The translations under genes were made by a program, and so were the position numbers. Below the pieces are notes generated by a model. The model was given only the letters and a program-made list of their open reading frames with translations. It searched no databases and was not told the DNA's origin. Below are positions 13,210-61,300 of a DNA stretch of 64,000 bases, in pieces. Location of the stretch: the NCBI GenBank assembly GCA_965153355.1, contig OZ231126.1, forward strand, positions 5,208,001 through 5,272,000, written 5' to 3'. The stretch's first letter is position 1; every line of letters starts with the position of its first letter. The DNA comes from Flaccisagitta enflata (lineage: Eukaryota).

Positions 13210-25286
<12,077 letters not shown>

Positions 25287-27439
25287 ACAGAAACTCACGG
25301 GAATATTGCGCATAACACAAATATAACATGAATAACATAACATAAATGGACGATTTACAGTTGGGACTGCCAGTAATTGACAGTGAAGAACTGCGCTCTC
25401 TCTTTTTGTGCGGTCCCCTCAACAAGAACTTGAGGGCGTGCATATATTGCCTCACAAGTCACAAGTCACAAGCGCATTTTGACTTAATCTAAGGAAGAGG
25501 GTTGGGGGAGCGCTAAAAAGGTGACCGAATAGATATTGCCCTGGGCCGAGGTTGTTGTCAATCAATGAGGACAGTATCGTGTCTTGTCAGTTATTCACGA
25601 TCGTATTGTGCGAACGACTGCATGTGCCCGTGCTATCGCATTGTCTTCGATTCGCGTACGTACTGTGTACGCGTACGTCGAACATGATGAGCTCAACTCT
25701 GGGACTATGGGAATTAGAGAAATTCGTCCACTGTGATTTTATGGACAGGCATGTTATTTTTGCCTCACAAACATCTATGAATTGTTTTAACTCGTCCTCC
25801 CTCTTTACCTTTCTTTGTTATTGTCTCTCAACAGCGTAACCTTAATAACCCGCAAATTGTATCTTTTATATTCATGACCCATTATTTGAAACAGAAGTTT
25901 AGACTAGTTCCAGTCACAAGTCATGATGGACAAGATAGTGTTCGCCAATTCGAAGAAAATATCAGAACTCCTGGCGCAGCCCCTAAAAGTGATCAGTTAA
26001 TCGGTCAACACTCCAGAGCGAGTTCTGAATTGTTCACCATCCTCGTAGGAAGATAACCAGAACGGGTACATGCCCCAGGGCCTGATAATGTTTGAGTGAA
26101 TAGAAAGTGATCATTGATTTCTTTTGAATCCAATCTCCCATGTTTTTAATTGCGGACACGTAATCTTATAACAGGCTTTGTCCGTTCGTCGTTCCGTGGG
26201 TTCGGGATGATCAAGTTGAAATGTGGGAAAACGGGCGACTCTTTTTGGGCAGCGGTCTCGATGGGAATGAAGTCTTGTAGAACACAGGGGGACTTTTGTT
26301 TGTGCGTCCATCTGTTCCTTTGTTCGTTCACACCCCCCCCCAAGCCCCCATCAGGTCATTGAGACTTCAAATCCACCCTTTCAGGTCCAAAATCTGTCCT
26401 CACAGGCCTTAAACCTGCCATCTCACCCTTCTAATCAGCTTTCTCAGACCCTTGATCAGCCCTCAGGATTTAAATCAGCCCTAACAGGCCACAAGTCAGC
26501 CTTAGCAGGCCTCAAGTCAGCCTTTTCAAGCCTCAAATTCGCCATCTCACTCTTAGGCCTCAAATCAGCCCTCTCATGCCTAAAATCAGTCTTCTCAGGC
26601 TTCAAATTGGCACTCTGGCCCCAAATCAGTCTAATCAGGCCTCAAATCCACCCACGAATGCACAATCTAAAGTCCACCGGTGTTCTACAGGGCTTCGTTT
26701 TCCTAGGGGCCGCTGACCTGCTTCCCTTCACTCAAATTTACAATCTCCTAGAGCAAGGCAACGGGCATCGCCGACCACATATTGCTCTTGGGCGACTGGT
26801 TGAGTATGTTTCTGGGGGGATCTGGATGGGGGTTGGACGCCCCTGCCTACCCGTCTGCAACGATATGGTAACCCGATGAGCCGTGTTAATTGTTGATTTG
26901 AGGAATGATATAAGCGTAATACTGCGGTCTGATGTCCAGGCCCACAACTACAGATTCAATGGTAGCAAAGCCGTCTGAAGAGGTCAAGTGCTTTGCTCTT
27001 ATGTCTTGTTTTCCTCGCTCTTCCCTGCCTGCTTTAGAATCCTCCTCGGCGATCCTCTGCCTTCTGAAACCTTACCATGGCCCCGTCCTTGGGAAAGCAC
27101 TTCACAATCGTTCATCGCTGTTATTTAATAAGACGCAATATGTAATAATGGAGCTTGAAGTAAAATCTGGTCCATAAAGTAGTCAGCTAGGACATGATAC
27201 CACTCTATTAACTTCACAAACCAAAGTTATTACGTGGTTCTTAAGATGATCCGGAGCTATGAAGAAAAACGCGTGTTGTCCATCGCTGACACAACAGACG
27301 TACAAGAGGAATGTCAATTGGGTTACCGCCTGTTTCTGAGGCCTATTGATTCCTTGCGTGACAAGTCAGCGGGAGGACCATCTTCGTGCAACGTCGTCAC
27401 CTGTCTTTAGAGCCCAATAATTGGTCGGCATTATCCATT

Positions 27440-28221
27440 TGAGATCGTTTAGCGTCTAGTTTCTTAGCAAGCTCCTGATGCGTTATCGCGAAAACTGACT
27501 CCACTGCGTAGCTGCGCTAAAGATTTGGATCGCACACCCGCTTAGAACGAATTGTTGAGATGAGCGGTCAAGTTGTCCGCGAAATCAGTCTATTCGTGGA
27601 ATCCTGACGGACAGAGAAAAAGGAAAAAGGTTAAGACAAGCTCTGTACATCAATGAAGGATACTTCTGTATGGCGCCAAAATGATAAAAGGTCAAGGACT
27701 TACACGGATGTTGTCGAACGGTTTCCAATCTAGGCGCAGGGCAGGGAAGTCGGGGAAAAAGCATCAAAAATCGAGTCTTTAACTGAGATCGTGTAATCGA
27801 ATGTCAGAAAGAAAGTCAGGGAAGCTACTTTTACTTAACCTGGAAATAGCAAAAAATGAGTCAAAACATCACGAGATTTGAAATTATTTGGCAGCAATGA
27901 AACAATAATAAACAGACTCGTCACGTCGTGGGAATTCGATAGAGGGGTCGAAGTCTTTCCTCCTCTAAGCGGTTGAGAAGATATAGTTCATCAATTCTCA
28001 ACCGGAAGTCAGCGCTTCCGGCGCGCGCGCGTTCCTCCCCTTCCTCCGTCGATCGAAGATCTCTCTCCTTCTTCCTCGATTTCCTCCACTCTGCAGTCGA
28101 GCGGACGCCATCTTGGATTTTCGATGGCGAGCCCCTCCTATTCTCCGGATCCGCGGAGTCGAATGCGTCCGATCGAGCGCTTCTTGACCTGGAGATGGTG
28201 GGGAATGTGGAGATTCTCACA
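27440..28221 (-). repeat. 3' LTR (782 bp)
   Basis: Direct repeat of 39133-39921, preceded by the PPT and followed by the TSD. Confidence 0.95.
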
Positions 28222-29056
28222 GTCCCCCATTTGAAATATTGCCAAAAATTTCAAATCTCGTATCTAACTAGTTTCTTGTCAGGGAATACCGTTCATTCTA
28301 AAAATTTACAAGCTATGACAACATCCGGGGCTCATCTCAAAAACAAAAAATTTTTAAATATTACAAAGACACCATTATAAATATCGTGGATCTCGCGCGG
28401 ATAAGACGATTCAGAAAATGGGTTCTAGGAGCAGAAACACCTACCACCGTCGATCGTCCGGGCTATCGCTACGGTCTGGTCATGAATCGCTCCTCTCGCT
28501 CCATTCTGCCTCCAGTCTTCATGCTAAACAAGAAAAAAAAGTAACGATACTAGATCCACGGGAATGATGGACTGAAATAAATAATTAGACTATATGCTAA
28601 GTGGTCTATACTAGTGTATAAACTATCCTAAACTACGTACCGACGCCCAGTTAGGATTGTCCATCACTCCAGCACGCACGTCTCTGAAATGTAAGCGGGG
28701 GGGTTCCCACACCCGGAATGGGTATGGAGAAACGGATCAGGAGAGTTAGAACTGATTCTCATTCCACAAATCATACGCTTAATATTCTAATTTGGTACAA
28801 TTGGTTCATGAGCAATTCAAGACCCCCCCTACCCCTCGACACTTACGCGGGAGAGTCGCAGGGGGGTCCCCGGTGGGACCCCCTCCCCCGACCGCCCTCT
28901 AGAGAAGCGAGGACGGCCGGCCTGTCCGTCACCGGAAGCATCTCGAGTCGCCATTGGATGATCAACCGCTAGTCTTCCGCGACGACGTAAAACGTCGGTA
29001 TGATACGCGCGATTGAAGTGGGAAGACGATGGCCGGGATCATGGCGACGAGACCCT

Positions 29057-31396
29057 CTACTTCCGGCCTTTACCCCTGCCGCCCTTTCCTCCACGATAGG
29101 ATGGCGCGTCGTCTTTCCTACTGTGGCGTGGAGGGGGGTTTCTGCCGGAAGGTGGCGCGTGGTCGCTCGACGGCGCGAAGTGGCGTTGAGTGCCGGAAGT
29201 CGACGGCATTTGTCCGTCGGACTGAGAAAACTCCGCGCGGACGCGGTCGGCTTCCTTCTTCGCGTCGGACAGCAGCTGGGCCATCTGAGCGACCTTTGCG
29301 TCGTGCTCACCGACAACCTTCATCCTAAAGTTGTATTGTTCGATGAGCTTCCTCGCCGATCTGGCTCTATCCACGGCGTGATCGGCAGCGTAGATCGCGC
29401 GATCCATCGGAGATGAGTTGGGATAGAAGGCCGCCGGAAGAATGTCTACAACCTTTTGAATATCCTTTGACCGAGGATGACTTGGCAACTTGATGGCGGG
29501 CCAACATCGCTTGGTCAGAAGGTCCTCCGGCGATCGGGGAGGGCGATGTGAAGGAGAAGAAGCGGATGCCGTCGACGTTGACGACCTGTTGGACGTCGAC
29601 GCATCTCTAGGCTTCCTTTTTGGACGACGATTCTTCTTCTTTTTGTTGGCGTTTTGCTCCTCTCGTCGCTGTTGGTCGTCGTTGACGGGAGGAGGAGGAG
29701 GTGGGGGCAGATTTGCGGCTGCCCCTGCGAGCACACCCCGATGATTGTTCGTTGTCGTCGTCGTTTGAGTTGGGACACGGATTGGTGAAATGTCACGTGA
29801 CCGCTGGCGTTGAGGAGGAGGAGGCCGGGGAGCGGGATCATGTGGTAATCTCGCGGGACCATCCATCACCGTCGATGATAACGATGCGGATGCATCCGGC
29901 GGTCCACCCCTGCTCACCCGACGTCTCTTCTCTCTCACTTCGATTTGCAGATTGTTGGCGCCAGCATTGGCTCGTCGATCGTCTCTTGAATGATGTTGTG
30001 GAGGATCCTGCGTCGCGGGCGTCTGACGCTGATCGCTGCCACTTCCGGTCGAACGAATAGCCTCTGCGATCCGACGAGCAGCTCCTTCACGTCGTCTTTT
30101 CCTCTGATTTGAGGCTTTTCCACTGGAAATATCTCTCAAAGTCCCATTTCCCATGTCCGCCGTTGCTCCAATAGATCTGATGTTGATGATCTTGCACAAT
30201 TGGAGCGTCTCGCGTGTTTCAACCGTCGCAATCTCACCGTCCTCTTCAACTAATTCGTCTCTAACTCTTTGTGTCGGAACATATGCTCTTCGCTCGGCTT
30301 GTGGATGAAGAGCATCTCTCTCCGCGCGTAGGCGACGCTGCGTGTCGTGGTATATCGCAGTGTGCTTCCGCTCGATGAGGGCGTCGACTTGGGCGTTGTA
30401 GATCTTCACTAATTCGACAGCTTGTTCCTGCGAGATGGAGGACAGATCACTGATGTACGGCGGGATCACCAGCGTCGCGTCAGGTGATGCTTGAAACGGC
30501 GCCGGCGCGGTCGAGTCTGCGGCCGGCGTTACTTGTAACGTCGGCGACTCCACGACCGCCTGCGACGTCTGCGGCGGCGGCGGCAGAATTGGGGGAGCAA
30601 GGAAGGAGCAGTAAGTACCCCAAGGGGCCTGTAGTCAGGTCGAGCAACCTCCCCGGGAGAAGTCCTCTCCTTCCGTCATGTTCGTTAGTGTCCATCTTAT
30701 CGCCCTCACTGTCATCCTGGTCTCGTAATCGTCATCCGTCTGCCGCCGTGTGTCGTCGTCGTCATCGTCAAAGTCCAAGTTGTCAGGGTCATTTAAATCC
30801 TGTCGCTCCACTTCCTCTGCTCCGCGTGGCGGCGGGGGGGCGTCCGTGGTGGAGGTCGACGTCGACTCCCCCATGAGCGCCTCCACTCCCGAGACTGCCG
30901 TATCGAAGCTTTCGTTGGCAGCTTGTTCTCTTTTCGCCTTTCTTGCCGCCCGGAGCGCATCGTCGGCTTGACGACGCGCTTCACCGGCGGCGCGCTTGTC
31001 GGCAAAGGCGTTGGCATCGAACGCGTTGAGGGCCCGAGCAGGAAGAGGGTCCGTAACGGTCCACGCGCCGGAAGACGAGTCGTTGAAGAGATGGCTGACC
31101 CCGTCGATGACGTCATCAGCTCCTCCAGCGACGGACTGTTGCAATCCGCGAAGCCTGCGTTGTTCTCTGAGGGACGCAGCCCTGGCCTCCTGCTCCTGTC
31201 TCCTCCTCTTCTTCTCCGGGTCTTTCTTCTCTTCCTCCACTTTCTTCTTCTCCTCTTCCACTCTCGCCCGCTCCTCTTCCATCCTCCTCGTCTCCTCCTC
31301 ATGGCTCCTCACCAAATCGGCCTGGGCTCGCGCCATGCGCTGCCTCCTCGCTTCGCGGATCTCGTCCGGCGTGCCTTGGTTATTCTGCTGCGACAT
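29057..31396 (-). CDS. Accessory ORF(s) of the BEL/Pao element downstream of integrase (253 aa + 498 aa, same frame, one TGA between)
   Basis: ATG at 31396 follows an acceptor at 31409-31408. Protein is charged/coiled-coil, Pro/Arg-rich, with a basic RGG-like end and no signal peptide or TM helix. Confidence 0.6.
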
Positions 31397-31939
31397 GATG
31401 GATCTTTCTGCAACAGTTATGCGACGATACCGACAAGGGGAAGCTTTTAGCGTAAGATAGTGTAAACGCCTGTTTTTGGAGAAAATTCAGATTTCGAGAT
31501 GTAACAAGACGGAAAGAGGAAGACATATCCATTAACATTGAGGAAGATTAAATGGTATACGCAGACAAAGAAATAAGACTCTTCGATCAGCGCCTCAAAT
31601 GACCTCCATACTCAACAGTCAATGATATGGATAAAACGGAAAAGGAAATGACGAACAAATGCCTTTATATGGTCAATACAAGATTGAAATGGCATGGCAA
31701 ATTTAGATTGTCAGTCAATCATGCAGACACTCTCAACTGACTGGGGCACCATGTACCTCTCTCTCTCCTGTCTTCACACACAAAGACATATCAGACAGAC
31801 CGACTGAGAAAAAGTAAACAAGACCAAAAAATAATCATGAGAAAAAAAAATCCTCATTTTCGGCATAGTCTTTGCAAATAGAAACACTTGTGCTTCTCTC
31901 TGGTCTACTTTCTCTCTCTCTCTTCACACTTATCCGTTT

Positions 31940-34900
31940 TTAATCTGAATCCAACTCCAATCGGACGATCTTCGACCGATCCTTGAGAACAATCTTGCCG
32001 TCGGGGCGTCGGATCTGTGCTTTCCGGACGTGACCACCAGATCCTTCCACTTCGACGACGCGTCCCAAAGACCACTGATGCCGATGAAGCGTCTCGTCAA
32101 CGATGATGACCAATGCATCTTTTTTGATGTTCACTTCCGATTTTGTCCATTTGCTCCTTGCGTGCAGCAACTGAAGGTATTCGGCGCGCCATACCTTCCA
32201 GAAGGCGTCAACGCGGGCCTGTGCGTTTCTCCATCGGCATCTCGTTCCCACGGCGTCGTTTCCGGTCTCTGGAGGAAGAATAGCTGCCGACGAGTGTGAG
32301 AACGTCGATGGATGCAAGATGTTGACCGGCCTCAGCGCTGATGTATCGCTAGGATCGTCGCTCAAAGGCGTGAGAGGTCGACGGTTGAGAATTCCCTCCA
32401 CTCAATCATGCTGTTTGGAAGACGTCGTAATGGAGCACGTGACCGGAAGTAATGGACGCCAAATGTTTTTTGAAAAGGGATACGACCCTTTCCCATACGC
32501 CGCCGTAATGAGGAGTCCCCGGAGGAATGAAGTCCCATTGGAGTCCATGCTGCTGCAGAGCCACTGTCGACGACGCGTTCCACGACTGCATCTCCTCCTT
32601 CATGACGCGATTCGCCCCAACCAGGTTGGTGCCACAATCTGATATGAAGCGACGCACCGTTTGCCGTCTCGCCGCGAATCTAATGATGGCGTTGATCATT
32701 GCCTCTGTGTCCATTTTAAACAACACCTCCACATGCACCGCCCTCGAAACCATGCAGGTAAATACAACCGCCCAGACTTTATGATCCGCCCTGCCGTTGA
32801 GTTTCACCAGGAAATGACCCATGCAGTCGAGTCCCACCTCCTCGAACGGCGCCGTTGGAATAAGTCGTCGTTGAGGAAGAGGCGCCATCTGCTGCTTCAT
32901 AGGATCTTTGAAGTTCCTTTGGCACGTAACACAATGGTGGATGACCGTCTTCACTGCCTGGAGACCACGAAGAATCCACACAAAGCGTCGCAGTTGGCAC
33001 AAGACGTGTTTTGGGCCTGCATGAAGATCCTGATGATGGACATGGCGAATCAAAGAAGCGACGTTTGGATCCTTCGACGGGAGAATCATCGGATATTTTT
33101 CATCATGGCCAATATCCGCATTCACAAGTCTGCTCCCGACACGCATCGTTCCTTTCTCGTCGACAACCGGATTGTGATGGCGTAAGTCTTGCAGATCACT
33201 TTGGCGCCGGCGTCGTTGATCAGCGGCGTCGTTTTTCCCACCGCCTTCAGTTTGGTTATTTCTCCACGGAAGTGTTTGTACTGGATTGCGTTGATCAAGC
33301 GGCGTTGTGCATCGTATACTTCAGCCATAGACACAGAATACGGGTTTGGCAGCGTCATCGTTGCTGCTCTTGTTTTCGCCTTCACCTTCTGTCTCCATCG
33401 CTGCGCACACTTCACAACCACGGCGATCAGACGCAACTTTGCCACCCAATCCTGGCGACGATCAGCCACTGAATAAGCGAACATCTCCTTTTCCTTCTCT
33501 CCTTCCTTCTCCTCCACCGTTTCCGTCGCGACGGCGTTGATTGACGCTTCCGGCGCCGTCGCGATGTTCATCACCGGCCACTCAGATTTGGGAAGGTAGA
33601 GAAACTTCGGACCGAAATGGAAGATGTCCCATTTTCCTTGTCGCCGGCGTCAATACCCCACGAACAATAGTCCATGAGGTTATTCTCCGAATCAACCCAC
33701 CTCCATTGAGAATCACTTGAGCCGCTGTGGATTTTTGAAAGTCGGTTTGCGAAGAAGCTTGGACGTTTAGACTTATGGTCGAAAATCATCTTCAGCACCG
33801 CCTCTGAATCTGACCAGAGCGTCACCATGTCCTCAGTCACCTTTGGAATGGTCCTCTTGATGAACAGTTTGAGTTTCACCGCTTTCTCTGCCGCTGTCAT
33901 TTCTAACCTCGGCACTGAATTATGGTGCGACGCTTTTGACGCATCAAGAGGGACGACGTGAGCCTTGGCGCACAAAATGGTAACGCGGATTGTTCCATCC
34001 TCATCTTCCACCAACCAATAGCCCACTACCCCAAAACCAGGGATGGCGGCGTCGCAGAAGATGTGAACTTCACGTCGAACGGCCTTCACAATGCCCCATT
34101 CAATGTGGCGCGGAATTTCAATCTGGATCAGCAATGGAGTCGCAGAGTACCATTTGGCGAAGCGTTTGATTAACGCCTCCTCCATCGTCGAATCCCATCC
34201 CTTCTCGGAAGCTCTCGTCAACTGAAGACACCTCCTCCCTTCAAGGGCGCGGGGGGCAGTGAAGCCTAATGGATCATAGTTGTCGGCTTGCATGGAGACC
34301 AATTCGCGAGGAGTCGTTGCCACCCTCTTGCATGCTTCTGGATCGCATCTGAAGATGAAGCAGTCCGTCGACGGCAACCATTGGACTCCCAAGACCTTCG
34401 TCGGCTCCTCGAGTTTGGCGCTCAAGTCGACTGCGACATTCGGATCGTCGTCCATCACCTCCACCGCGTTCGATTTCCATTTAGTTAACGTAAATCCGCC
34501 GCTTTTCATGGCGGCGATGAGATCCTGCTTCAGCTGCAGTGCTTCGTCGACTGAATCCGCACCACCAGAGCCATCATCGACGTAGAAGGCATGCCTCAAC
34601 ATTTCGTAGACGTTTTCCGGGAAGTCGGGCTTGATCTTCTCTGCGTGATGGCGTAAAACATAGCTGGTGACGAGACTCGATGACACAGATCCAAAGATGT
34701 GCGCCAAGAAGAGCATCACGACTGCCTCTCTCATGCTTTTGTCAGTGAACCACATATATCTGAACGTGTCCGCGTCCTCAGGATGGACGCGGACATTATG
34801 AAAGAACGCCTTTATATCAGTCATCAGACCGATTTTATAAAGGCGAAATTTCATAAGAACTTCAGTCAAGACGTTCATGATATTCGGACCTCCAATCAGT

Positions 34901-35934
34901 AGTTCATTGAGGCAGATGCCACCAGTCTCCGCGCGTCCATCGTGACAAATCCGCGTTTTATTTCTTTCCTCCACTACATGGATAGGCAAGTACCAGCGTG
35001 GCGATGAGATGCTTGCGTCGTCATTCGTCGGATCAATCTCAATCGCCACGCCCGTATCCACAAATTTGTCCATTTCTTTGAAGACGCGATCGCGGAGGTC
35101 ATGATTATTTGAGAGTTTGTATCGGAGACTTTTTGTCCTCTTAATCGTCATCGCGCGTGCGTTAACGGATTTGATAATCTCGATGATCTTCTCCTTGTCA
35201 TAGCGCCATGGAAGTCCCACGACGTATTTTTGGAGTTTCTCGTCGAAGTATATCGTCTCCATCACTCGTTTCACCGCGCGACGATTCTCTTCAGACTGGC
35301 CCATTTCTTCCTCCGACACAATGGCGAAGTCGTGATAGAACATGCGGTCGAGAGATTTGCTCAATGCGACGTTATCCACGTGGATTGCGTTAATGACAGC
35401 GGTATCATCTGATCTTCGTCCACTCTTCCCTGCTACAGTCCATCCAAAACCGCATCTGAAGGCTGTCAAAGATCCTGATGGACCTCTTCTTGCCTCCACA
35501 GGCATCGTCGCGTCGTAATGGGCGGCGCCGATGATCAATTGGACAGGACCATTTGCTTTTGGAAATGGAATATCGCGAAGATGAGATTGATTTGTGAAGT
35601 CGCGTTGGCATGGAGCAATATCCGCTTCACCCGTCAATAATTCTCCCGTTAGTGCGTTGCTGATGTGGACGTTGTATTCCTCGTCAATCGATGAAAGGAT
35701 GAAGGACGCCAAAACTTTCTCCTCCACCACCTCACAATTGACCGTATGCACGCGCATCAGCATCTTTTCAGTTGGTAAGTCTAATTTTTTAACGATTTGA
35801 AGCGATAAAACGTCACGATCCGCACCGCTGTCGATCATCCCCAACACTACGGTGGAACGGCCCGTCGATGCGTTGGTGATCTTTACAGGAACAATCGGTC
35901 GCGTGACATCATCCTCCGCGACCACCGTCCTCAT
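31940..35934 (-). CDS. pol: BEL/Pao pol (protease, RT, RNase H, integrase), frameshifted
   Basis: MIDSGADRD protease, FYVDDG RT, HIFCDAA RNase H, HVHHQDLHAG...CVTC zinc motif, ISDCGTN and GGVWER integrase core, LNRRPL...FWKVWRAEYL C-terminus. Split over ORFs 33571-35934, 33122-33574, 32406-33146 and 31940-32401. Confidence 0.93.
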
Positions 35935-35952
35935 CGCGGAGGTGGCAGCGAG

Positions 35953-38900
35953 TCATGCCTCCATCACCCTTCCTTCATCAGATGCAGAGTCATCCGTCGA
36001 CGAGCTGCTTGGGGGTGCTGGAGGAACGGTTTTGGCGGCGGCAGCGGCTGCGGCTAATGCGGCGGCATTCGGCGTCTTGAACGTGATTCCTTCTCCATTC
36101 CCTTTTGGCTTCCATTGGCGGTCGTGCAGCAAAGTTGCGTGTCTCTTGTTGCAAGATGAGCATGTTGGCTTGTCTTTGCAGTCGCGCGCCGAATGGTTTG
36201 GGCAGAAACAATGAAAACATAGACGTTTCTCCGCCAACTTCTTCACTCGATCCTCTGCTGATGGGATGGCTTCCAAAACATTGCACGAATGAGAATTGTG
36301 ACGACCTCCACAAATATTGCAGATGTCGTTGGGTTGCTGTTTCGGAGGTGAGTTGACGAGCTGTTCCTTAAACGTCGCCGGACCAACTGCAGTCGCTGCA
36401 ACCTTCGTCGGTTTCGGCGCCATGCGTGTTGGTTCTTTGAGGTTGTTGTACGATACCCAATGTTTCACTTCCTCGATGAGTTCTTGGAAGCCGTAAGCCG
36501 TGCCATGGCGAGCTTGTTCACGCGCGCTCGCTTTCCAATAGTCCGTCGAGATGTGTGGCACCCTCGCGTTGATGATGCGGCGAATGTGGACGTCACGATC
36601 ACACTCTCCAGGTACATTCAGCAATTCTGCGACGTTTTCCAGTTTGTACAACGTGCCAATCAATGATTGATGGGCTCTCATATCGTTTTCTGGGACCTTT
36701 CCTTTCCTGCAGATGCTGTCGACGGCCGATTGGAATGGGTTGGCGCTCGTGTTGAACATCTCGTCCAGGCGTCTCCACAAGGTGCTGTAGACACGGCGCA
36801 TATTGTGCGCCTTGATGATAAGTTGTTGACCGTCGATAATTTCCTTCGCTGGATTCGCGAAGACGTTGGCCAATTCAGTCACTTTGTCGATTTCGTCTAG
36901 CTCGATGTTGGAGGCGGCATTTTCGAATTTAGACTTGGCGATGATGTAGTCGATCGGCTCGAGGTATCCATACGCTTCTCTTGGACGTGCTGCGCGCATT
37001 TCCCTCAATCCCACGTCCTTTGCTCTGACGCGGGCGTCGTAGGCGATCGGGTTGTCGATGAAAGAGGCGGCGTTCATCCTCTCGGCGAAGGACTGCGAAT
37101 GTGCGAGGCCATTTCGCGCGGAGTCACTTCCGGTTTGACGTCTTTGATACATAGGAGGCGACGGCGTTGGGGGTGGCGTCTTCCTCGACTTCCGTCTGTC
37201 GACGCGTTCGAACCCCTCGTCATCGAAGACGTCGTCGACCAGAGGGCGCTGACTCCCGCGTACATTTCGGGATGCTTGTGGAGCTGGAAGATCACCCGCG
37301 ATCTGGCGGACGATGACGGGTGAGCTTGGTGATGGCGGCGTCGATTTGCGCGGTGGAACACGTGTCTGCAAAACGACGCTGTCTTCCAGGTTGAGATCGC
37401 TGATCAATTGTTGGACCCTTGCCATTGCGTCCGCGTGATCCATCGCGTACTTTTCTTGTTCCGCTGCATCTTGTCTCGTGCGCAGTTGCTCGTGGAGAGG
37501 ATGTTCACGTGCGGCTGGGGGTGGCGTCTTGGAAGGTGGTTGTCTCTGCTGGCTTTTCTTTTGCGCCTCTCTCCTCTTCCTCTCCTCCTCCTCTTTCTTT
37601 TTCTTCTCTTCCTCCTTTTTCTTTTCTTCGCGTCTTTTCTTCTCCTCCATCCTCTTTCTTTCTTCCGCGTCTCTTTTTGCCACCGCCTTCCTTCTCTCCT
37701 CCTCTGCTTTCCTCTCTGCTTCTCTCCTTTTCTTTTCTTCTCTCTCCTCTTTCTCTCTTTTCTCCTGGGCGATCTTGTTTTTCAAGTTCGTCCTCCTTTT
37801 CTCCTCCTGCTCCTTTCTCGTCTCCTCTGCCTTCCTTCTCACTTCTTCAGCGTGGATGCGTTGTCTCTCCTCCTCCTCCTCCTTCTCTTTCTTCCTCCTC
37901 TCTCCTCCTCCTTTTTTCCTCTCGTCAATTCCGGCAGTGACCGCGTCTGTCCGGGCAGTAACGGCTGCGTCTATTGCGATGTTTGCCGTCAACTGCCGGG
38001 CATTTTCTTCGCGTTGTTGAGATACAGATCGCGAGCTGGACGAATCGCGTGTTTGCGCGTGCTTCTCTCGCCACCGAGCGTCGAACTTGGTTGACGTCGT
38101 TGACCAGACGTTGGACGACGTTCCACCATCGCGTCGCCTTGAGCGTTTTTCGCCGTCGACGATCGACTGCTGTAGCATGTTGAGAAGATCTTGTGTGGGA
38201 GGGGCGCCGCCAACGGCGCCTGGAGGGAGGTCGGCGTCGTTGTTCGGCCATGACGTTTCCATCGCGTCGTCGGCGTCATCGTCTCCATCGTCTCTAGCCG
38301 ACAAGAAGCGCGACCTCGCCGGCGTCGCCGGCGTCGGAGGTTCAAAGTTTATACGTATCTCCTCGGCGTCTTGTATCGCGCCTGGCGTATGGGGCGGCGC
38401 GTTGTGGCGTTGTTCCGCTGCATGAGATTCGCCGCTTCCGTACCGACGGGCAAGTCGTCCTCTCCCGCGTCTCCATCGTCGCCGGTTGTGTTCGGCGTCG
38501 ATTTGCGTCGTCGTGAAAGGGACTGGACGAAATGCGTCGACGACCCCATCGTCATCTCGAGAGCGCGTTTTGCTCCAGTCTCTGGTGACTCGTCGTGGAT
38601 GTCGTGGTAAGTCGGCAGGAATAGATGCGACGCAAAAGTGTTTTTGTCGTGGAAGCATGATTGGTCCCACAGTTTCCGTACTTCCGTCAATGAGCTTTCG
38701 GCAGTCGATAACAGTGACGCCGCTTTGTCGGGATTGTTGGTCGACTCTGCATGTGAGTAAGTCTTTGTCTGGTTGACAAGTCGCCACGCCGCTAACCACA
38801 CCTCCTTTCGAAGGCAGTCCATATCTTGGTAAAAGTCCAATATATCGTCGTCGTCGAGGGTATCGGCTTGTTTCAACGCCGACATGTATGCGTTGCGCGT

Positions 38901-39089
38901 GTTGCGTAGCGCCTTTCGTAACCCGCGAAGCGTCGTAGCCACGGGGTCCATTGCGCCCGCGTAGACAGATGAGTCGGAAACGACAGACACACAGTCGGCT
39001 GGACGAAAGGCTTTTCTGCGTTGATTGGGCAGCGAAGGTGGCGGCATTGACATCGCGTCGGCGTTGGCGTTGTTGTTGGCGGTCGACAT
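35953..39089 (-). CDS. gag: BEL/Pao gag (one frameshift near 38400)
   Basis: Triple Cys/His knuckles CNICGGRHNSHSC, CFHCFCPNHSARDC and CSSCNKRHATLLH, typical of BEL/Pao. Long E/K-rich coiled coil. Confidence 0.88.
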
Positions 39090-39132
39090 CGTTGACGTTG
39101 CGTGGATCGTTGATGGTTTTGATTCCACGAAT

Positions 39133-39921
39133 TGAGATCGTTTAGCGTCTAGTTTCTTAGCAAGCTCCTGATGCGTTATCGCGAAAACTGACTCCACTGC
39201 GTAGCTGCGCTAAAGATTTGGATCGCACACCCGCTTAGAACGAATTGTTGAGATGAGCGGTCAAGTTGTCCGCGAAATCAGTCTATTCGTGGAATCCTGA
39301 CGGACAGAGAAAAAGGAAAAAGGTTAAGACAAGCTCTGTACATCAATGAAGGATACTTCTGTATGGCGCCAAAATGATAAAAGGTCAAGGACTTACACGG
39401 ATGTTGTCGAACGGTTTCCAATCTAGGCGCAGGGCAGGGAAGTCGGGGAAAAAGCATCAAAAATCGAGTCTTTAACTGAGATCGTGTAATCGAATGTCAG
39501 AAAGAAAGTCAGGGAAGCTACACTTACTTAACCTGGAAATAGCAAAAAAATGAGTCAAAACATCACGAGATTTGAAATTATTTGGCAGCAATGAAACAAT
39601 AATAAACAGACTCGTCACGTCGTGGGAATTCGATAGAGGGGTCGAAGTCTTTCCTCCTCTAAGCGGTTGAGAAGATATAGTTCATCAATTCTCAACCGGA
39701 AGTCAGCGCTTCCGGCGCGCGCGCGCGTTCCTCCCCTTCCTCCGTCGATCGAAGATCTCTCTCCTTCTTCCTCGATTTCCTCCACTCTGCAGTCGAGTGG
39801 ACGCCATCTTGGATTTTCGATGGCGAGAGAGCCCCTCCTATTCTCCGGATCCGCGGAGTCGAATGCGTCCGATCGAGCGCTTCTTGACCTGGAGATGGTG
39901 GGGAATGTGGAGATTCTCACA
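39133..39921 (-). repeat. 5' LTR (789 bp)
   Basis: Direct repeat of 27440-28221; differs by a few substitutions and short indels. Confidence 0.95.
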
Positions 39922-40105
39922 CCATTGGTCCTATGTTTCGACATGCATTACGATATTGTAGCAACGCGATGAATGGATTATGACATGTACACTTACCTTT
40001 TTACTTCCGCAGGCGCAAGTCCTTGATTAGCACAAAAAAATTGACTTTTATTGAACTTTAATTTGCCGTAAAAAGAAATCGAAACTGTGAAATTCGTTAT
40101 TGACG

Positions 40106-43100
40106 ATGGCGTTGCTGACGAAGGGATTGTTCCATTTGTTGCGGACGTCGTCTCGTCTGTCGACGCCGTGCTTCATAGCGCCGGTCAAAGGCGCTTCCAT
40201 CGCTTCCGCCGCCACCTCGTCCAAGTCGCCGACCTCCGCCGCCAACGCCTCCGCCAACATCTCGGCCAATTCATCTTCGCGCGTGAAAAAGTTCCAAATT
40301 TACCGATTCAATCCTGAGAACCCGGGAGAAAAACCGCGCAAGGAAATCTTCGAAGGTACAGTAGATCTCGTCTAGACTTGAGATAACGGCGGCAAGCATT
40401 GTGGAAAAACAAATGAAGCCAGGGGAGTCGGGTGTGTCAATATATAAAAGGTCTTTTGATCAGCTCATCATCATCAGGGAGTGTGAAGACACTAATTACA
40501 AGACACTTACCATTTTTATTTTTTTCAATTTCAATCATCTTCCGTTTTTTTAGCGCGAGTAAAGATTGTCAAAAATATATATACTTTTAGCGACTCTACC
40601 CAGTTTTGTTGAAAATGAGACTGATATATCATTCAAAAAATTATGTTTTTTTTGTTACTATTTCTTCTTATGAAAAGTAAAACATTTTGACCAATTCTTT
40701 TTAGATTAAAGAATAAGATAAGAAATGGGTTCTGATTTTTATTCTTATGATCAAGAATCCCGGTGCAAAACCAGCTGCACTACAATATACAAATTAGGGG
40801 CTAAATGGAGATTTGAAAAAAACGGAAGACGAATGAAATTAAGAAAAACAAAAATGGTAAGTACCTTAGAATTAGTGTCCCAACACTCCTTGATGATGAC
40901 AATCTGATCAAAAAAGTTTTTTGAATTTTGACACACCCGACCAGGGGAGTGATATTTGAAACATAGACTTATAAAGGGATAGTTTATTACCCATGATAGC
41001 TGGTTGCTATGGAAACGCATTTCTATGTATTTTCGCTAAAATATCAATATTTTGAGAAATTTTTTGAGGGAACATTTTTTAAACTCAAATTTGCTACAAC
41101 TTTCCCACAGTATGATCTGTAAGAATGTCGCTCCTTTAGCGGTTGCCAGGGGTCGTCACACATGGATAGCTCCCTAGCAACGGCCAAACGAGCGATATTC
41201 TTACAGAACATACTGTGGGAAAGTTGTAGCAAATTTGATTTTAACCAATGTTCCCTAAAAAATTTTTTCAAAATATTGATATTTTAGCGAGAATACATGG
41301 AAATGTGTTTCCATGGCAACCAGCTATCATGGGGAATTAAGCATCCTTTGACTAGTCTATGATCAAAATATCGCTCCCCTGCCTTCATTCCTCTTTCCAC
41401 AATGCTTGCCCCCGTTATCTCAAGTCTAGACGTGATCTACTGTACGGGTTGGCCAGCTAGTTTTGTTAGCTAATGGTAGTACAAATAGTGCTCATCCCGT
41501 TCGGTATCTCGGTAATAAATTGAACGTTGTACCGAATTTCTTTATCTTTTTAGTGGATCTGAACAAGAGTGGGCCGATGGTTTTAGACGCGTTGATCTAC
41601 ATCAAGAATAATCTCGACTCCAGTCTCACCTTCAGACGCTCTTGTCGCGAAGGTAAATCACGACGTTAAGTGAAACCCCACTACAAACGATTCAAAGCGT
41701 TTATCCAACTGCTACCGCCCCACCCCATTTAGGCTTTTGCTATTCCTGTGCGTTGAAACTCCTCTATTCTGAAAATCTAGCTGTAGTGTAATTCTTCCCC
41801 TTCCCCCGGCTTCGTATAGTCTGAAATCGTACTTTAACGCAATTTTTTCCCCTTCCCTTTATCAGACATCTGTTTTTCTTCTTGTTTTTTTTTCTGTAAA
41901 TAAAGAGGAGAGCATGGCAAACAAAATCAGTGGTGGGCAAAATTGCATAAGAATGGAAAAGTAACAGTAGTTTTTTTTACGTATAAGAAGATCAAAAATG
42001 AATGTATACAAAGGCACAAATGGGAATCACAGAATCACGGAATCATTCTTGTTGAATCTGTGAGCAATCTAAATATCTGCGCCAGCAACGGAAATTTGGC
42101 TGTAACGCTATTCCTCTCCCCCCCCCCCCCCTTCTTCGCTTTATCAGGCATTTGCGGTTCGTGTGCGATGAACATCAACGGCCGCAACACTTTGGCCTGT
42201 CTCTGCGCAATCGACGATCCAGCCAAAACCACGAAAATCTATCCCTTGCCGCACATGTACGTCGTCAAAGATCTCGTGCCAGGTGATTGGGGATCAGTGC
42301 TGGGAGGTTTCCATTACGCATACGGCATACAGGGGATAAGTTGGTTGCCGGATGATTCTGGATCAGTGGTGGGAGTGCTGTATGTGATTCCAGATCACAG
42401 TTTTGACGGCTGGGAGATTCCAAATATGAGGGTTAGTCGGTTCCAAAGAACTTGGAGTTTGTGGACAGTCTCGAATCTCTGTGGTCCAACCCCGAAGATT
42501 TAGCGATGATGATATCGATGACCCTAGGATGTGCGATGACGAGTGACGACGACGATGATAGCGATAATGACCTATCAAATATCCTATCAGCCCCGATGAC
42601 AATTCCTCATTCTCTCCCTCATGTACCTCCGCCTCCCGACTCGGGTCTCTTTACCCCTCACCATTATTTCAATCCACGACTCTCTCGTCTCCCCCCCCTC
42701 CCCCCTCATGCAGATATGACCAACTTTTATCAGCAATACACGAGCATCGAGCCGTATCTTCAACGTGACGGCGAACAAGTCTTTGGCGAGAAGGCTCATT
42801 TTCAATCGGTCGAAGATCGAGCCAAACTGGATGGTCTGTACGAGTGCATTCTCTGCGCTTGCTGCACGGCCAGCTGCCCCAGGTACTTAAATCAAATTGG
42901 ATTACGTCATTTAAATGCTTGGTCTGTCTGTCGGTCACACTAAGCTTTTTGGCGGGATCAGAAAACCGTTTTAATTCAAATGGTTTTTTAATTAATGTTT
43001 AAAGAAATCAGACGAAAAAAAAACACATCAAATATCACAATGATAGGTTTCGCTTCAGCTGATCTTTAAAAGCCTCTTTCCAGCCCACTGTTTACTCGAG

Positions 43101-53083: not shown

Positions 53084-56000
53084 ATGATGTCCGCGATTTA
53101 CCGCGCAACGTCCGGTTTCATTGAGATTGAAGCTTCCGTAACTCGTCTTTCTCGCACCTTTTCTTGTCTTTGCGCCGCTTCGCAATCAGACAGACGATCG
53201 ACCGTCTCGCCGAGACGGAAGACCAGTGTTTCTAGTGTTTTATCATGGGCAGGGACAACCATTGTCGCATCAGGAGCGAATATGAACGCGAAAATGACGA
53301 CCAAGAAAGCCATGACGACCTCGTTGTCTCTACAACCACGTTTGTCAGGCAGCAGCAACGCGAACCGAAGATTATTATTTTCGAATCCAACGTTTCATCG
53401 GCATTCCTTCACCACTTCCTCAAAAACAACAACAACAACATCATCAACAACCACATTAACGAGTATCCGAGCTTTTACTGAACGATTCCAACCCAAAAAC
53501 TTGGTCCAACTCGCCCCTCGGTCGTCTCAGCCTTATCTTCTTTTGATGCGGTTGGACAAACCCATCGGGACTTGGTTGTTGTACTTGCCGTGCACTTGGG
53601 GTATCGCTATGGCAGCCGCGCCTGGAGCATGGCCCGATCTCGGAATGCTCGCTCTTTTTGGCACCGGTAAGTCGGGTTGTTCTTCTGCTTGTTCTTCTGC
53701 TTTCACGTTTATTCTCAAGTGATTGTCTCCGATGTTTTTATTGTTGCTGCAAATGACTGCGTATGCCGTATGATTTGTTGAAGCCAACGTTTGTGTACAG
53801 ACGCAGGCACTGTACTGCACTGATGCGCGGTGCGGGATGCACTATCAACATACATGTGGGATTGCGACTAAAGGTGTGATGTTATCCACCACGCTCTGTG
53901 CTGATGTACGTGATGCGAGATGCAATGTCAATGACATGTGGGATTACGAGCAGAAGGGTTATCTGTTGTGATGTTATCCTACTGGCGCTGTGCTGATGCG
54001 TGGTGCAGGATGCACGATCACGACATGGGATCTTGACTAAAAGCGTTGTTTCCGTTGTGATATTATCCTACAGGCGCTGTGCTGATGCGTGGTGCAGGAT
54101 GCACGATCATGACATGGGATCTTGACTAAAAGCGTTGTTTCCGTTGTGATGTTATCCGATAGGCGCTGTGCTGATGCGTGGTGCGGGATGCACTATCAAC
54201 GACATGTGGGATCGTGACTTTGACAAACATGTTGAAAGAACAAAAGCTCGCCCTTTGGCTAAAGGGGACGTCTCCATAAAGCAGGCAACCGCGTTCTTAG
54301 GTATCATTGTTTGTGGTAATTTAAAGGTTTGTGCGTGCTTGATGTGTGCATGTTTTGGATTTGTTTGCTTGCGCGTGCTTCTTTGGCTGAGTTTGTTTGG
54401 GTTTGTTTGTTTGGATGTGCTAGTTTGTGTGTGCTTGTTGGTCTTTGCTTATTTAGCTTAGCTTGTTTGGGTTTGCTTGATTGTGTGTGCTTGTTTGGCT
54501 TTGCTTGATCGTGTGTGCTTGTTTGTGTGCGCGCCTGTTGCTGTTTGAGCGTTTGTATGTTTATTAAGGTCCATTTCTCTTCCGCCTCTCTCCCCTCTCT
54601 CTCTTACAGCATTACAACTATCGGCTTCGTGATTGATCTTGTTGCAACTTATCTGGTATTCCGTGTTTTTGGGCGCATCTTCATTGCTCATTGTGATGAC
54701 ACACCCCCTTTCTTCCCTCTCTCTTACAGCATTACAACTATCGGCTTCGTTATTGATCTTGTTGCAACTGAACTGGTATTCTGTGTTTTTGGGCGCATCT
54801 TCTTTGCTCACCATGATGACTTACCCTCTTTCTTCCTTCTCTTACAGCATTACAACTATCAGCTTCGCTATTGATCTTGTTGCAACTTATCTGGTATTCC
54901 GTGTTTTTGGGCGCATCTTCATTGCTCATTGTGATGACACACCCCCTTTCTTCCCTCTCTCCTACAGCATTACAACTATCGGCTTCGCTATTGATCTTGT
55001 TGCAACTGAACTGGTATTCTGTGTTTTTGGGCGCATCTTCTTTGCTCATCGTGGTGACTTACCCCCTTTCTTCCTTCTCTTACAGCATTACAACTATCAG
55101 CTTCGCTATTGATCTTGTGGCAACTGAACTGGTATTCGGTGTTTTTGGGCGCATCTTCTTTGCTCATCGTGGTGACTTACCCCCTTTCTTCCTTCTCTTA
55201 CAGCATTACAACTATCAGCTTCGCTATTGATCTTGTGGCAACTGAACTGGTATTCTGTGTTTTTGGGCGCATCTTCTTTGCTCATCGTGGTGACTTACCC
55301 CCTTTCTTCCCTCTCTCACAGCATTACAACTATCAGCTTCGCTATTGATCTTGTTGCAACTGAACTGGTATTCGGTGTTTTTGGGCGCATCTTCTTTGCT
55401 CATCGTGGTGACTTACCCGCTGATGAAGCGCTTCACTTACTGGCCTCAATTCTTCCTCGGTCTCGCCTTCAACTGGGGCGCTCTCTTGGGATTCGCCGCC
55501 GTCAAGTGAGAATGGAATCGATTGATGTCAGGTCATCGGGGAAATAAAAATGATAACGATTTCTCCTCCGTATTGCGCCGTTATTACTCGCGTTGAATTC
55601 ACGCTTGCGGGTGGGCACCGTGGGCATTGGGGCAATAATTCGGGTGGGCAGGGGTAGTATGGGACAGGGCGTGGGCTGTAATCAGGCTGGGCATTGATGT
55701 CAGGTCATCGCGTAAAAATGATAATTTTCTCCTCCGTCGATTTCGCGTCATTCTTGCAAGACGGGTGGGCAGGGGTAGTATGGGACAGGGCGTGGGCTGT
55801 AATCAGGCTGGGCAGATGCAGTCGCGTTCAGCCATTTCGCGTCATCTAAAGACAAAACCTTGTACAGAGTCGCTTTTCTTTTTACTCCGTTCTTTGTTCA
55901 TAGTCATCCTTTAGAATTCATTAAACCTTCATTTAAGTCATTCAACTTCCATTTCCTCTCTGACTCCAAACCCCCCCCCCCCCCCCCAGTGGTTCTCTGA

Positions 56001-58342: not shown

Positions 58343-61300
58343 CCCCGCCGTCAATTTCACGTTTCCGGTCGATGGGACAAACGCGATTATTACGAAGTGT
58401 TGGGCGTCAGTAAAAACGCCACCACCAAAGAAATTAAAAAAGCTTATTTTGAAAAGGCGAAGAAACTGCATCCGGACGCGAACCCCAACGACCCGTCGGC
58501 TGGCGAGAAGTTCCAGGAAGTCTCCGAAGCTTACGAAGTGTTGAGCGACGACGGGAAAAAGTCGCAGTACGATACTTACGGAATGGCCGGGGATCCCGCC
58601 AGCGCATCCGGTGGTGGAGGAGGAGGAGGAGGAGGACCCGGAGCCAATCCATTCGCGGGAGGATTCGGCGGATTCGGATTTCAAGGTATGGCAAAAAAAA
58701 ATAATCCTGTGGCTGTGTCTATTCTGTGAAGTATGCTAGTAAAGCAACGCGGCAGGCAAGCCTCAAAAGTGTGGTGGATGTGGCCAGCCAAGGGGGGTCG
58801 GGGGTGGAATGGAGAGGAAACATTAGCAATAGCGCTTGTGCATATCAGCCTTTGTTTCATTGATCTGTGGATGAAATCTCCATTTACATATTGCATTTAT
58901 ATATGTTATTATATATTTTGGGCCGGGACCTATCAGGGTTACAGAATATTCTTTAGCACTCAGCTACTTGAATCTATGTTAGCGCCTTATGCCCTTGTTA
59001 GCTGTTAATTGAGCACTTTATCCCTTGGGGTAATACCACCCTGGTCCCAAGCTCAAAACTATAATTGGTATTGGTAATCCCAGTGAACTCTATCATTAAA
59101 CTATCTTGGGAATTACTTGTTCCTAATCAGCAATCCTATAAATAAATCCACAATGGTTAACTTTTAGAACAAAACACAAGAGTTTATTAATTGACAGAAA
59201 TTATCAGGCATTGAGAACATAAGAGAATAAAAGTTTTCTGATCACTTGATAAAATATTACCTCCCCCTCAAGTTCCCCCTTAGAGTATTTTAGTTTAAGT
59301 TATAAGATATTGGACTACTTAGAATTATTTTATCCCAATTTATATCAAAACTCCCACTTAAATGGACTCTGGCTAATACTTAGTCTCTACAGAGACTTAA
59401 CAACCTTTACAGTGTCTCTACTGAGACTTTACCACTCTTACAGTGTCTCTACTGAGACTTGAACACTTTTACAGTGTCTCTACTGAGACTTGAACACTTT
59501 TACAGTGTCTCTACTGAGACTTAAACACTTTTACAGTGTCTCTACTGAGACTTGAACCCCTCAACAATGTCTCTACTGAGACTTGAACACTTTGACCGTG
59601 TCTCTACAGAGACAGAGTTACCTTAGTGGAGTAGTAATAAAATAATACTTAAGGCTTTATCACTTAAAATAAGATTAACTTAGACTTAAGTTAGAAATAG
59701 AGTTAGAAGAGAAATAAGTAACTTTAGCACTTAGACTATAGATAAAGTATAGTGGAATCATTAAGTGACAAACCACACTTATAATTATCAATACCTTTGG
59801 TAGAAGTTGACTGACAGAGGTCAGATAATAATTTCAGCTTATTTATTTGGAAGAGCAGGAGAGATGTCCTTCTTCTAGGAAAGCCAAAATCTGAATGAAT
59901 TACCTGGGAAAATCTACTCCACACATCAACTTTGTTTTGCCTCCAGCTCCCTGGAAGGAGCTAATTTGTGCTGGTTCCAAGGAGCAGCCTTGCTCCCCAA
60001 TATGAGCTCCATAGGAATTGGATGTTTAACATTGTGCTCCTATGGAGGAGCTAGCTAGCTCCAAGGAGGGAGCTTAATTTGATCTGCCACCCATGAGCTA
60101 CCTTGCTCCCTGGAGGAAGCACCATTGGAATAGGCCGTTTAACATGGAGCTCCCTCAGGGGAGCAGCCTTGCTCCCCGGAGGAAGCTAAAACTCACTGAT
60201 TTCACATTGTACTAATAATATTGGAGTAGGATACTATGAGAATGATACATTTACATACTTATTTAACACAACCATTGGGTTAAATACCCTAATTGCCAGA
60301 GTTTGAGCTAATACTATGTTATTTTAATCCTTTCATTTCCCCCCCTTTTATGTGATCAGATTTTAGATAAAAGTTATCATGAGAAACAACAATCAATACA
60401 GTAGCAATACAATTAGCAGGAATTAACAGTGATTTACAAAACAGTGAGCAATTCAACAGCTAATGTAACTAAGTTGATAGTAGGGCCCATAACTAGATAG
60501 CTTATTCAAAAGCTAATTAATCACATTAGAAATGCCCCTTGTAGCTAGATAGTAGCCCCAAATGACAGGGAACTATAAACATAGTTAAGCCATGTCACAT
60601 ACTTACCCATTCCACTTTTTACAACATATGTTTTAGACAGGCTGACAAATGTTCTTTATACAAGAATCGGATCATTCTTATCGTCAGATAATTATTTGTT
60701 AGTCTGAAACAAAGGTTCCTATGAATTCTTGATAACCATGTCATATGGCCCAGTATCCATAATTTCGTTTTACCCCCGAGTATGATTTCGTTTTGTTCAA
60801 AGAGTTGAAATAAATCAGAAAATTGCTGCTTTTGGACGAAATGCTTCTTGTCGCACTATTGCTTCTTGACGAAAGTGTTTTGGCCAATATACGCTGCGGC
60901 GATGTTGAGTTGCATGTGCGGAATAATCACAGATTCAGTTGAGTAGCGCTATACCTAATGGTTGATCACTTATGATAAACAGAAGGTTGCTTCCCCATTT
61001 GTTCAACCCCTTTGACTCTCTTTCCTTCCCCCCCCCCCCCTTCCTTTGTCCTTATTCCTGCTTCTCCTCCAAATCAGGTTACCAGTCTCAAACGAATCCC
61101 GAGGATTTATTTCGTAAAATCTTCGAGGATTTCGGTGGTTCGTTCGGCGGCGCGGGAATGGGAGGAGGAGGAGGGGGATTTGGACGAGAGTCAGTTCAAG
61201 GATCGACGCAAGAAATCGTCATGGATTTGAGTTTCCAGGAGGCCGCCAGGGGAGTCAACAGAAAGGCGGCTATAAACGTGGTAAGTGTATGAAGGGGGGG

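Follow-up and report, generated by a model that had tools for sequence, protein, structure and literature searches.

Tf1 and Tf2, Ty3/gypsy elements of Schizosaccharomyces pombe, are self-priming LTR retrotransposons (Levin 1995; Lin & Levin 1997, both as cited in PMC5341516), and self-priming has been predicted in Tf1/sushi elements, Tcn1 chromoviruses, and TAR Ty1/copia elements (PMC6317226). The excerpts of PMC6317226 that deal with Tf1/sushi, Tcn1, and TAR do not name BEL/Pao elements and mention neither an intron nor a split primer. Achilles, a BEL/Pao element of the olive fly, is tRNA-primed through a tRNA-Tyr site (PMC4580426). A word search of the BEL/Pao survey PMC3118150 returned none of the terms PBS, primer binding, tRNA, intron, and self-priming. 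No report of self-priming in BEL/Pao elements or of an intron-split primer was found in open-access full text. Splice sites in or near the LTR are familiar from retroviruses, for example the major donor in the R region of deltaretroviruses.

Here we describe an LTR retrotransposon in a 64,000-nt stretch of Flaccisagitta enflata DNA (the window) whose 5' LTR carries a predicted intron directly in front of a putative self-primer. The window element resembles retroviruses with LTR donors in having splice signals inside LTR-derived leader RNA; in retroviruses such splicing makes subgenomic mRNAs and plays no role in primer formation, unlike what we propose here. It resembles Tf1/Tf2, as these are presented in the excerpts consulted, in having beside the 5' LTR a site complementary to the element's own LTR and in needing no tRNA, and release of the primer by the element's own enzyme, as in Tf1/Tf2, is proposed for it likewise. 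It differs from these Ty3/gypsy elements in belonging to BEL/Pao and in the predicted intron, which precedes the primer and in relatives interrupts it. For the window element, as for Tf1/sushi, Tcn1, and TAR, the case for self-priming is built on complementarity between LTR and binding site. Achilles, from what its published description offers, shares with the window element the superfamily, a Pao-type pol, and TG..CA LTR ends, but in place of a tRNA-Tyr site the window element and its marine relatives have one complementary to the element's own LTR. Our main reading, to which we give a probability of about 0.58, is that a small spliceosomal LTR intron (39396-39297, 100 nt) has its 3' splice site at the AG 39298-39297 and that its removal is coupled to self-priming.

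The element and its primer-binding site

On the minus strand, positions 27440-39921 of the window are one BEL/Pao (Semotivirus) LTR retrotransposon of 12.5 kb. Its 5' LTR (39133-39921, 789 nt, TGTGAG...GATCTCA, ends read directly) forms a direct repeat with the 3' LTR (27440-28221), in which the same 12-base self-primer (27603-27592), acceptor, and donor are present; the two LTRs are ~99% identical, and 39132-39431 matches 27439-27738 at 100%. The LTRs have the TG..CA ends (TGTGAG..TCTCA) and the 5-bp target-site duplication expected of BEL/Pao, the latter being AATGG at 39922-39926 (minus strand) with its second copy at 27435-27439, limits that were read at both LTR ends. A purine-rich tract (AAATGGGGGA, 28223-28232, minus strand) adjoining the 3' LTR was read as the plus-strand primer site.

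The pol region (31943-35934, minus strand), located by Pfam matches and by tblastn with P0001, encodes protease, reverse transcriptase, RNase H, and integrase. Its Pfam matches are to Peptidase_A17 (2e-28), RVT_1, and rve/Integrase_H2C2, in the Pao-type domain order. P0001 is an uninterrupted 1332-aa Pol from public assemblies that is 98% identical to, and colinear with, the window pol; relative to it the window pol changes frame near 33634, 33188, and 32405, despite the ~99% identity of the LTRs. The pol of the window copy is therefore in four pieces and three frames, and the copy is defective. The gag-like region (35953-39089, minus strand) comprises ORFs 39089-38349 and 38658-35953 and has no Pfam match. 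The first ATG past the binding site is at 39089, and its 246-aa ORF overlaps a 901-aa gag-like ORF in another frame. The gag-like frame is open from 39141 and has a single stop at 35955-35953, after which pol goes on in-frame with its first ATG at 35934, an arrangement suggestive of readthrough of the stop codon or of reinitiation. Between pol and the 3' LTR (29057-31486, minus strand) lie two contiguous in-frame ORFs of 283 and 525 aa with no Pfam match, and a relative, L002, likewise has a long ORF past pol (from about 9386). Elsewhere in the window are a 210-nt inverted repeat pair (40942-41381, 87% complementary, 20 nt apart) and further repeats (54482-55435; 61144-61969; 21287-21461 and 24734-24964) that include tandem arrays of ~118/238 nt and ~160 nt and long (AC)n tracts.

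Directly past the terminal CA of the 5' LTR (39134-39133) lies the predicted primer-binding site, ATTCGTGGAATC (39121-39132, minus strand). It is complementary at 12/12 positions (39132-39121 vs 39296-39285) to the 12-mer GATTCCACGAAT (39285-39296, minus strand), which was read as the opening 12 bases of the exon that follows the acceptor, and such a complement anywhere in the 790-nt LTR has a probability of ~5e-5 by arithmetic. The arrangement that defines Tf1-type priming, a site next to the 5' LTR that is complementary to the same LTR, is therefore present in the window element. In the predicted fold, the minimum-energy and centroid structures alike pair the 12-mer with the binding site; the stability of the fold of 39298-39100 as a whole was not above that of shuffled sequences (z = -1.13). 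The 12-mer of the window element is whole without splicing, and splicing would add 1 bp, with a 1-in-4 probability by chance, and 0.9 kcal/mol.

Splice signals in the LTR and RNA contigs

The preliminary description had stated that the 12-mer directly abuts a branch point, a pyrimidine tract, and an AG, and each of these was read at its place on the minus strand: the predicted 3' splice site (39297-39328) consists of a branch-like CTTAAC (39328-39323), a pyrimidine tract (39323-39299; 18 of 20), and CAG (39299-39297). Over both strands of the window, 26 of 128,000 positions have an acceptor of at least this strength (18 or more of 20 pyrimidines and a YAG), which puts the probability of one abutting the 12-mer at ~2e-4. 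Exactly 100 nt upstream of the acceptor, and in both LTRs, is a GTAAGT donor (39396-39391) that was absent from the earlier list of signals; the probability of a GTAAGT within reach of the acceptor is 0.12, and the joint probability of this donor and of an acceptor at that exact base is therefore small. The signals of a spliceosomal intron (GTAAGT, CTTAAC, 18 of 20 pyrimidines, and CAG) are all present at 39396-39297, and the predicted 100-nt intron (GTAAGT...CAG, minus strand) has a 101-nt counterpart at the same place in L002. Upstream of it is a predicted 26-nt exon (39397-39422, minus strand) bounded by an acceptor-like CCTAG, whose AG is 39424-39423, and by the donor at 39396; in L002, too, YAG is followed after 26 nt by GT.

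Both donor-like sequences that had been named originally, CCAG|GTTAAG (39533|39532) and GTAAGT (39527-39522), are present in the 5' LTR (39522-39533, minus strand), but the GTAAGT at 39527 reads GTAAAAG in the 3' LTR and in contigs of all three RNA runs (39522/39523); it is private to the 5' LTR copy and was rejected as a feature of the family. The best donor for the acceptor at 39297 is the one at 39396, rather than 39532 or 39527, and the latter two may instead belong to an upstream intron of 105-110 nt ending at 39423. A TATA-like TTTATTATT (39606-39598) and TCA(39573)AATC together resemble a promoter consensus and could mark a start. One reading of the LTR is accordingly that a start at TCA(39573)AATC would give a 41-nt exon, a 110-nt intron (39532-39423), the 26-nt exon, and the 100-nt intron. 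A start at 39573 agrees with the conserved splice signals, and a start at TCA(39298)G agrees with the Tf1 rule that the primer stands at the start of the RNA.

RNA runs matching the stretch are marine metatranscriptomes, every one containing under half of the sampled words. RNA contigs of runs X1-X3 were placed on 38700-40000 at 90-99% identity, and the raw-read run X17 gave 0 reads on the stretch. The X1-X3 contigs over the LTR cross 39297 and 39396 unspliced and have no joints and no clustered 5' ends, although contigs cannot show transcription starts. A loose contig end at 39921 runs into a purine tract, which is the context of the 3' LTR. The contigs neither show nor exclude splicing or a start site; the 3' end of genomic RNA, or DNA, would yield an unspliced LTR in any case. 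One X1 contig (record 3, 308 nt, 39704-39396) stops exactly at the last base common to the spliced and unspliced forms, and X1 has no contig over 39218-39395; with ~50 contig ends on 1,300 bases, the end at 39396 is only a hint.

Self-complementarity and split primers in marine relatives

Dozens of relatives of the window Pol, at 35-55% identity, were found in marine assemblies, named animal proteins reaching ~30% at most. A profile scan of metagenome contigs yielded 507 relatives, the best 80 of which were analysed (L001-L080); a profile search of IMG/VR and prokaryote genome collections found no relatives. Repeat pairs were present in 15 loci plus the window element (16 sequences), and 8 of these 16 were used, in which the LTR pair fixes the 3' end of the 5' LTR (window, L060, L070, L049, L011, L035, L047, and L056). 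The remainder (L010, L017, L018, L045, L053, L059, L064, and L069) were left out because the repeat reaches the contig end and the 3' end of the LTR is not fixed.

In 7 of the 8 sequences with a fixed LTR end, the sequence past the LTR is complementary to the LTR. The complement is contiguous over at least 10 nt in five (window 12, L060 14, L070 12, L049 10-13, and L011 10) and exists only across an intron in L047 and L056, whereas L035 has no complementarity between post-LTR sequence and LTR. A site starting with TGG directly past the LTR occurs in 0 of the 8. Self-priming thus looks like the rule in this lineage, as judged from complementarity. Unanchored inverted repeats of at least 11 nt upstream of pol gave 39 matches vs 39 in reversed controls, and L019, L021, and L040 are therefore not counted as shown; a 16-mer of L002 from the same unanchored scan was rejected as its binding site.

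Split primers were sought by scanning for three features together: the primer core behind a pyrimidine-rich AG, a binding site with CA in front of it, and a donor upstream of which the complementarity continues. Among the 80 loci plus the window element (81 sequences), the lenient form of the scan gave 19 hits in sense vs 3 in antisense. The strict form, which adds strict donors and at least 3 junction-crossing bases, gave 9 of the 80 loci in sense (L002, L010, L034, L039, L045, L052, L056, L068, and L072; best 80 of 507), compared with 0/80 in antisense and 0-3 per replicate in 20 shuffled replicates. In these nine loci the binding site pairs across the exon-exon junction once a GT..AG LTR intron is removed, and the adjacency of AG and primer proposed in the preliminary description is observed across families, an LTR intron acceptor abutting the primer core in each. 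The introns are 75-423 nt long (mostly 75-200), and the end of the upstream exon supplies partners for 3-8 bases of the binding site; these exon bases vary by family, each site matching its own. The primer/binding-site duplex is more stable when spliced in 10/10 families, by 2.6-12.8 kcal/mol in nine relatives and by 0.9 in the window element. The earlier suggestion that splicing defines the primer gains strong support, for cis-splicing, from these junction-crossing sites; the same sites, whose added bases come from the LTR's own exon, speak against its version with spliced-leader trans-splicing.

L002 is the closest relative with a 5' region among the best 80 of 507 (43% Pol identity). It has GTGAGT, a 101-nt intron, a pyrimidine tract, and TCAG|GATT, with the binding site directly past ..TTTTACA, and a YAG lies exactly 26 nt upstream of the donor in L002 and the window alike. 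Junction-crossing complementarity is weak in this clade, amounting to 1 base in the window and an extension from 9 to 11 nt in L002, but the spacing (100/101-nt intron, 26-nt exon) is shared while the LTRs are otherwise diverged, which argues for working splice sites in both. Conservation of intron position and signals around a diverged interior is seen in L002 (101 nt), between L060 and L072, and between the two LTRs of L056. In L056 the layout is AACG|GTAAGG..(98 nt)..CCAG|ATTGTTAT with a 12-nt site abutting the LTR CA; its LTRs are only about 78-80% identical, and donor, acceptor, and both primer halves are kept in both.

A precise intron loss was observed in L060, whose 3' LTR reads ..ACACAGAT|GTAAGT..(117 nt)..TTTTTAG|TTTTCGTTAC.. 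and from whose 5' LTR precisely this 117-nt stretch is missing. Past the 5' LTR is a site complementary to 14 bases, AGAT plus TTTTCGTTAC, that are contiguous only without the intron. Both LTRs lie in one contig, at 1-214 (intron gone) and 6935-7265 (intron kept). Because reverse transcription should make the LTRs alike, L060 stems from recombination, from the assembly of two variants, or from RNA; the asymmetry could reflect an assembly chimera of two variants, so the locus documents the loss of the intron rather than which LTR carries it. In L072, which is diverged from L060, the exon parts and the 14-nt site are kept and the intron (GTGAGT..ACAG, 109 nt) has a different interior.

Two further observations concern the sequence upstream of the donors. 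In L002 a segment of the upstream LTR (1149-1164) is a perfect 16-nt complement of 1636-1651, a stretch made up of the 3' part of the 26-nt exon and one base, the first, of the intron; this complement was matched in 0/200 shuffles and could mask the donor, but such masking was rejected as a general mechanism, as it is significant in L002 only and not in the other nine families. In a post hoc inspection, an AG was found 9-13 nt upstream of the donor in nine families outside the window/L002 clade, where the distance is 26 nt; this AG is acceptor-like in five families and is part of AAG, unlike an acceptor or an initiator, in six loci.

Competing readings and a model of splicing-coupled priming

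The main rival, raised in the preliminary description and in our judgement less probable than splicing, is that TCAG is an initiator, transcription starting at A39298 (or G39296) and the 12-mer forming the 5' end of unspliced RNA as in Tf1; the upstream signals would then lie in U3 and be relics, or act on the 3' LTR copy only. Such a start suits the 12-mer, which needs no splicing, and a 5'-terminal primer settles plus-strand transfer without added assumptions. In the contiguous-primer relatives L011, L049, and L070 the primer is not preceded by AG, and an A mostly lies 1-2 bases upstream. GGACA (39271-39267), at +28 to +32 from A39298, fits the downstream promoter element (consensus RGWYV), a match with ~2% probability by chance. 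As far as the excerpts of PMC5341516 go, the self-primer of Tf1/Tf2 is part of R, and it depends on the start site used whether priming can take place. TCA(+1)G fits the initiator TCAKTY (PMC3601003) in part, up to +2 only, but the G at +3 departs from this consensus and TATA is absent near -30. A plain promoter also leaves unexpected the GTRAGT at 100/101 nt and the YAG 26 nt further up, which are common to L002, and nine other families pair across a spliced junction and must therefore start upstream of the donor.

The remaining readings appear far less probable. That a spliced leader is joined in trans at the acceptor, so that the mature RNA would be leader plus 12-mer, is compatible with the strength of the acceptor and with the presence of the family in marine plankton metatranscriptomes, since some animal groups in marine plankton trans-splice. 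We nevertheless consider it most improbable: a consensus cis donor lies 100 nt upstream, the primer-completing bases of relatives are supplied by the upstream exon of the LTR itself, and in L060 the LTR without the intron has LTR sequence joined to LTR sequence. The RNA contigs, which can miss rare forms, have no loose ends at 39297, no spliced-leader RNA or other Rfam family was matched within the window, and a leader 5' of the primer would leave a non-matching tail at plus-strand transfer. It is scarcely more credible that the primer is real and the resemblance to splice sites is due to chance or a dead relic. The sense strand of the LTR is indeed pyrimidine-rich, with five acceptor-like sites, and the window copy is defective in pol; the joint probability calculated above is small, however, and the same layout occurs in L002 and eight further families. 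Equally remote, in our estimate, as the spliced leader is the use of a host tRNA as primer, at TGGAATCAAAACC (39127-39115) overlapping the site of the 12-mer, with the LTR match serving RNA folding only. TGG stands 5 nt past the LTR end, a usual place for a tRNA-type site, and the site of Achilles, as its published description gives it, is an 18-nt tRNA-Tyr site (PMC4580426). On the other hand, the implied acceptor stem would be very A/T-rich, TGG past the LTR is absent in most relatives, and every family's site matches its own LTR. A tRNA scan found no tRNA genes within the window.

Cis-splicing coupled to self-priming is supported as a trait of the lineage by the sequences of the relatives, and for the window element itself the splicing reading is probable on the strength of the signals that it shares with L002. 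In the model that we infer, transcription would start in the 5' LTR upstream of the donor, and excision of the intron would place the 12-mer directly behind a short upstream exon. The RNA would then fold so that the 12-mer and the last exon base (13 nt) pair with the binding site adjoining the LTR. Cleavage of the RNA by the element's RNase H at the 3' border of this duplex, as in Tf1/Tf2, would leave a new 3'-OH to prime minus-strand DNA. Because the template would lose its primer region through this cut, the progeny LTR would, after first strand transfer, have its primer, intron, and upstream exon copied from the 3' LTR copy in the RNA. An unspliced 3' copy would pass the intron on, whereas splicing of that copy would mean its loss, which would explain both its persistence and an occasional precise loss such as that in L060. 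With one or more upstream exons tens of bases long, the primer would not be at the 5' end of the RNA, and plus-strand transfer would need an extra stop or cut.

It is quite possible, if short of probable, that in a large marine BEL/Pao lineage the host spliceosome licenses reverse transcription, the primer being completed or placed by splicing at the 5' end while the 3' LTR copy remains unspliced, with intron-less LTRs arising when both are spliced. Self-priming is known from Tf1/sushi-type elements and a few plant elements, and judging from open-access full text, self-priming in BEL/Pao and a primer interrupted by an intron are apparently undescribed. Annotation tools that seek tRNA-type sites or contiguous self-complementarity would miss split binding sites. 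The model, if true, would provide a simple account of how introns persist in, or vanish from, LTRs, and if splicing assembles or positions the primer, replication of these elements would be tied to nuclear RNA processing, a new control point.
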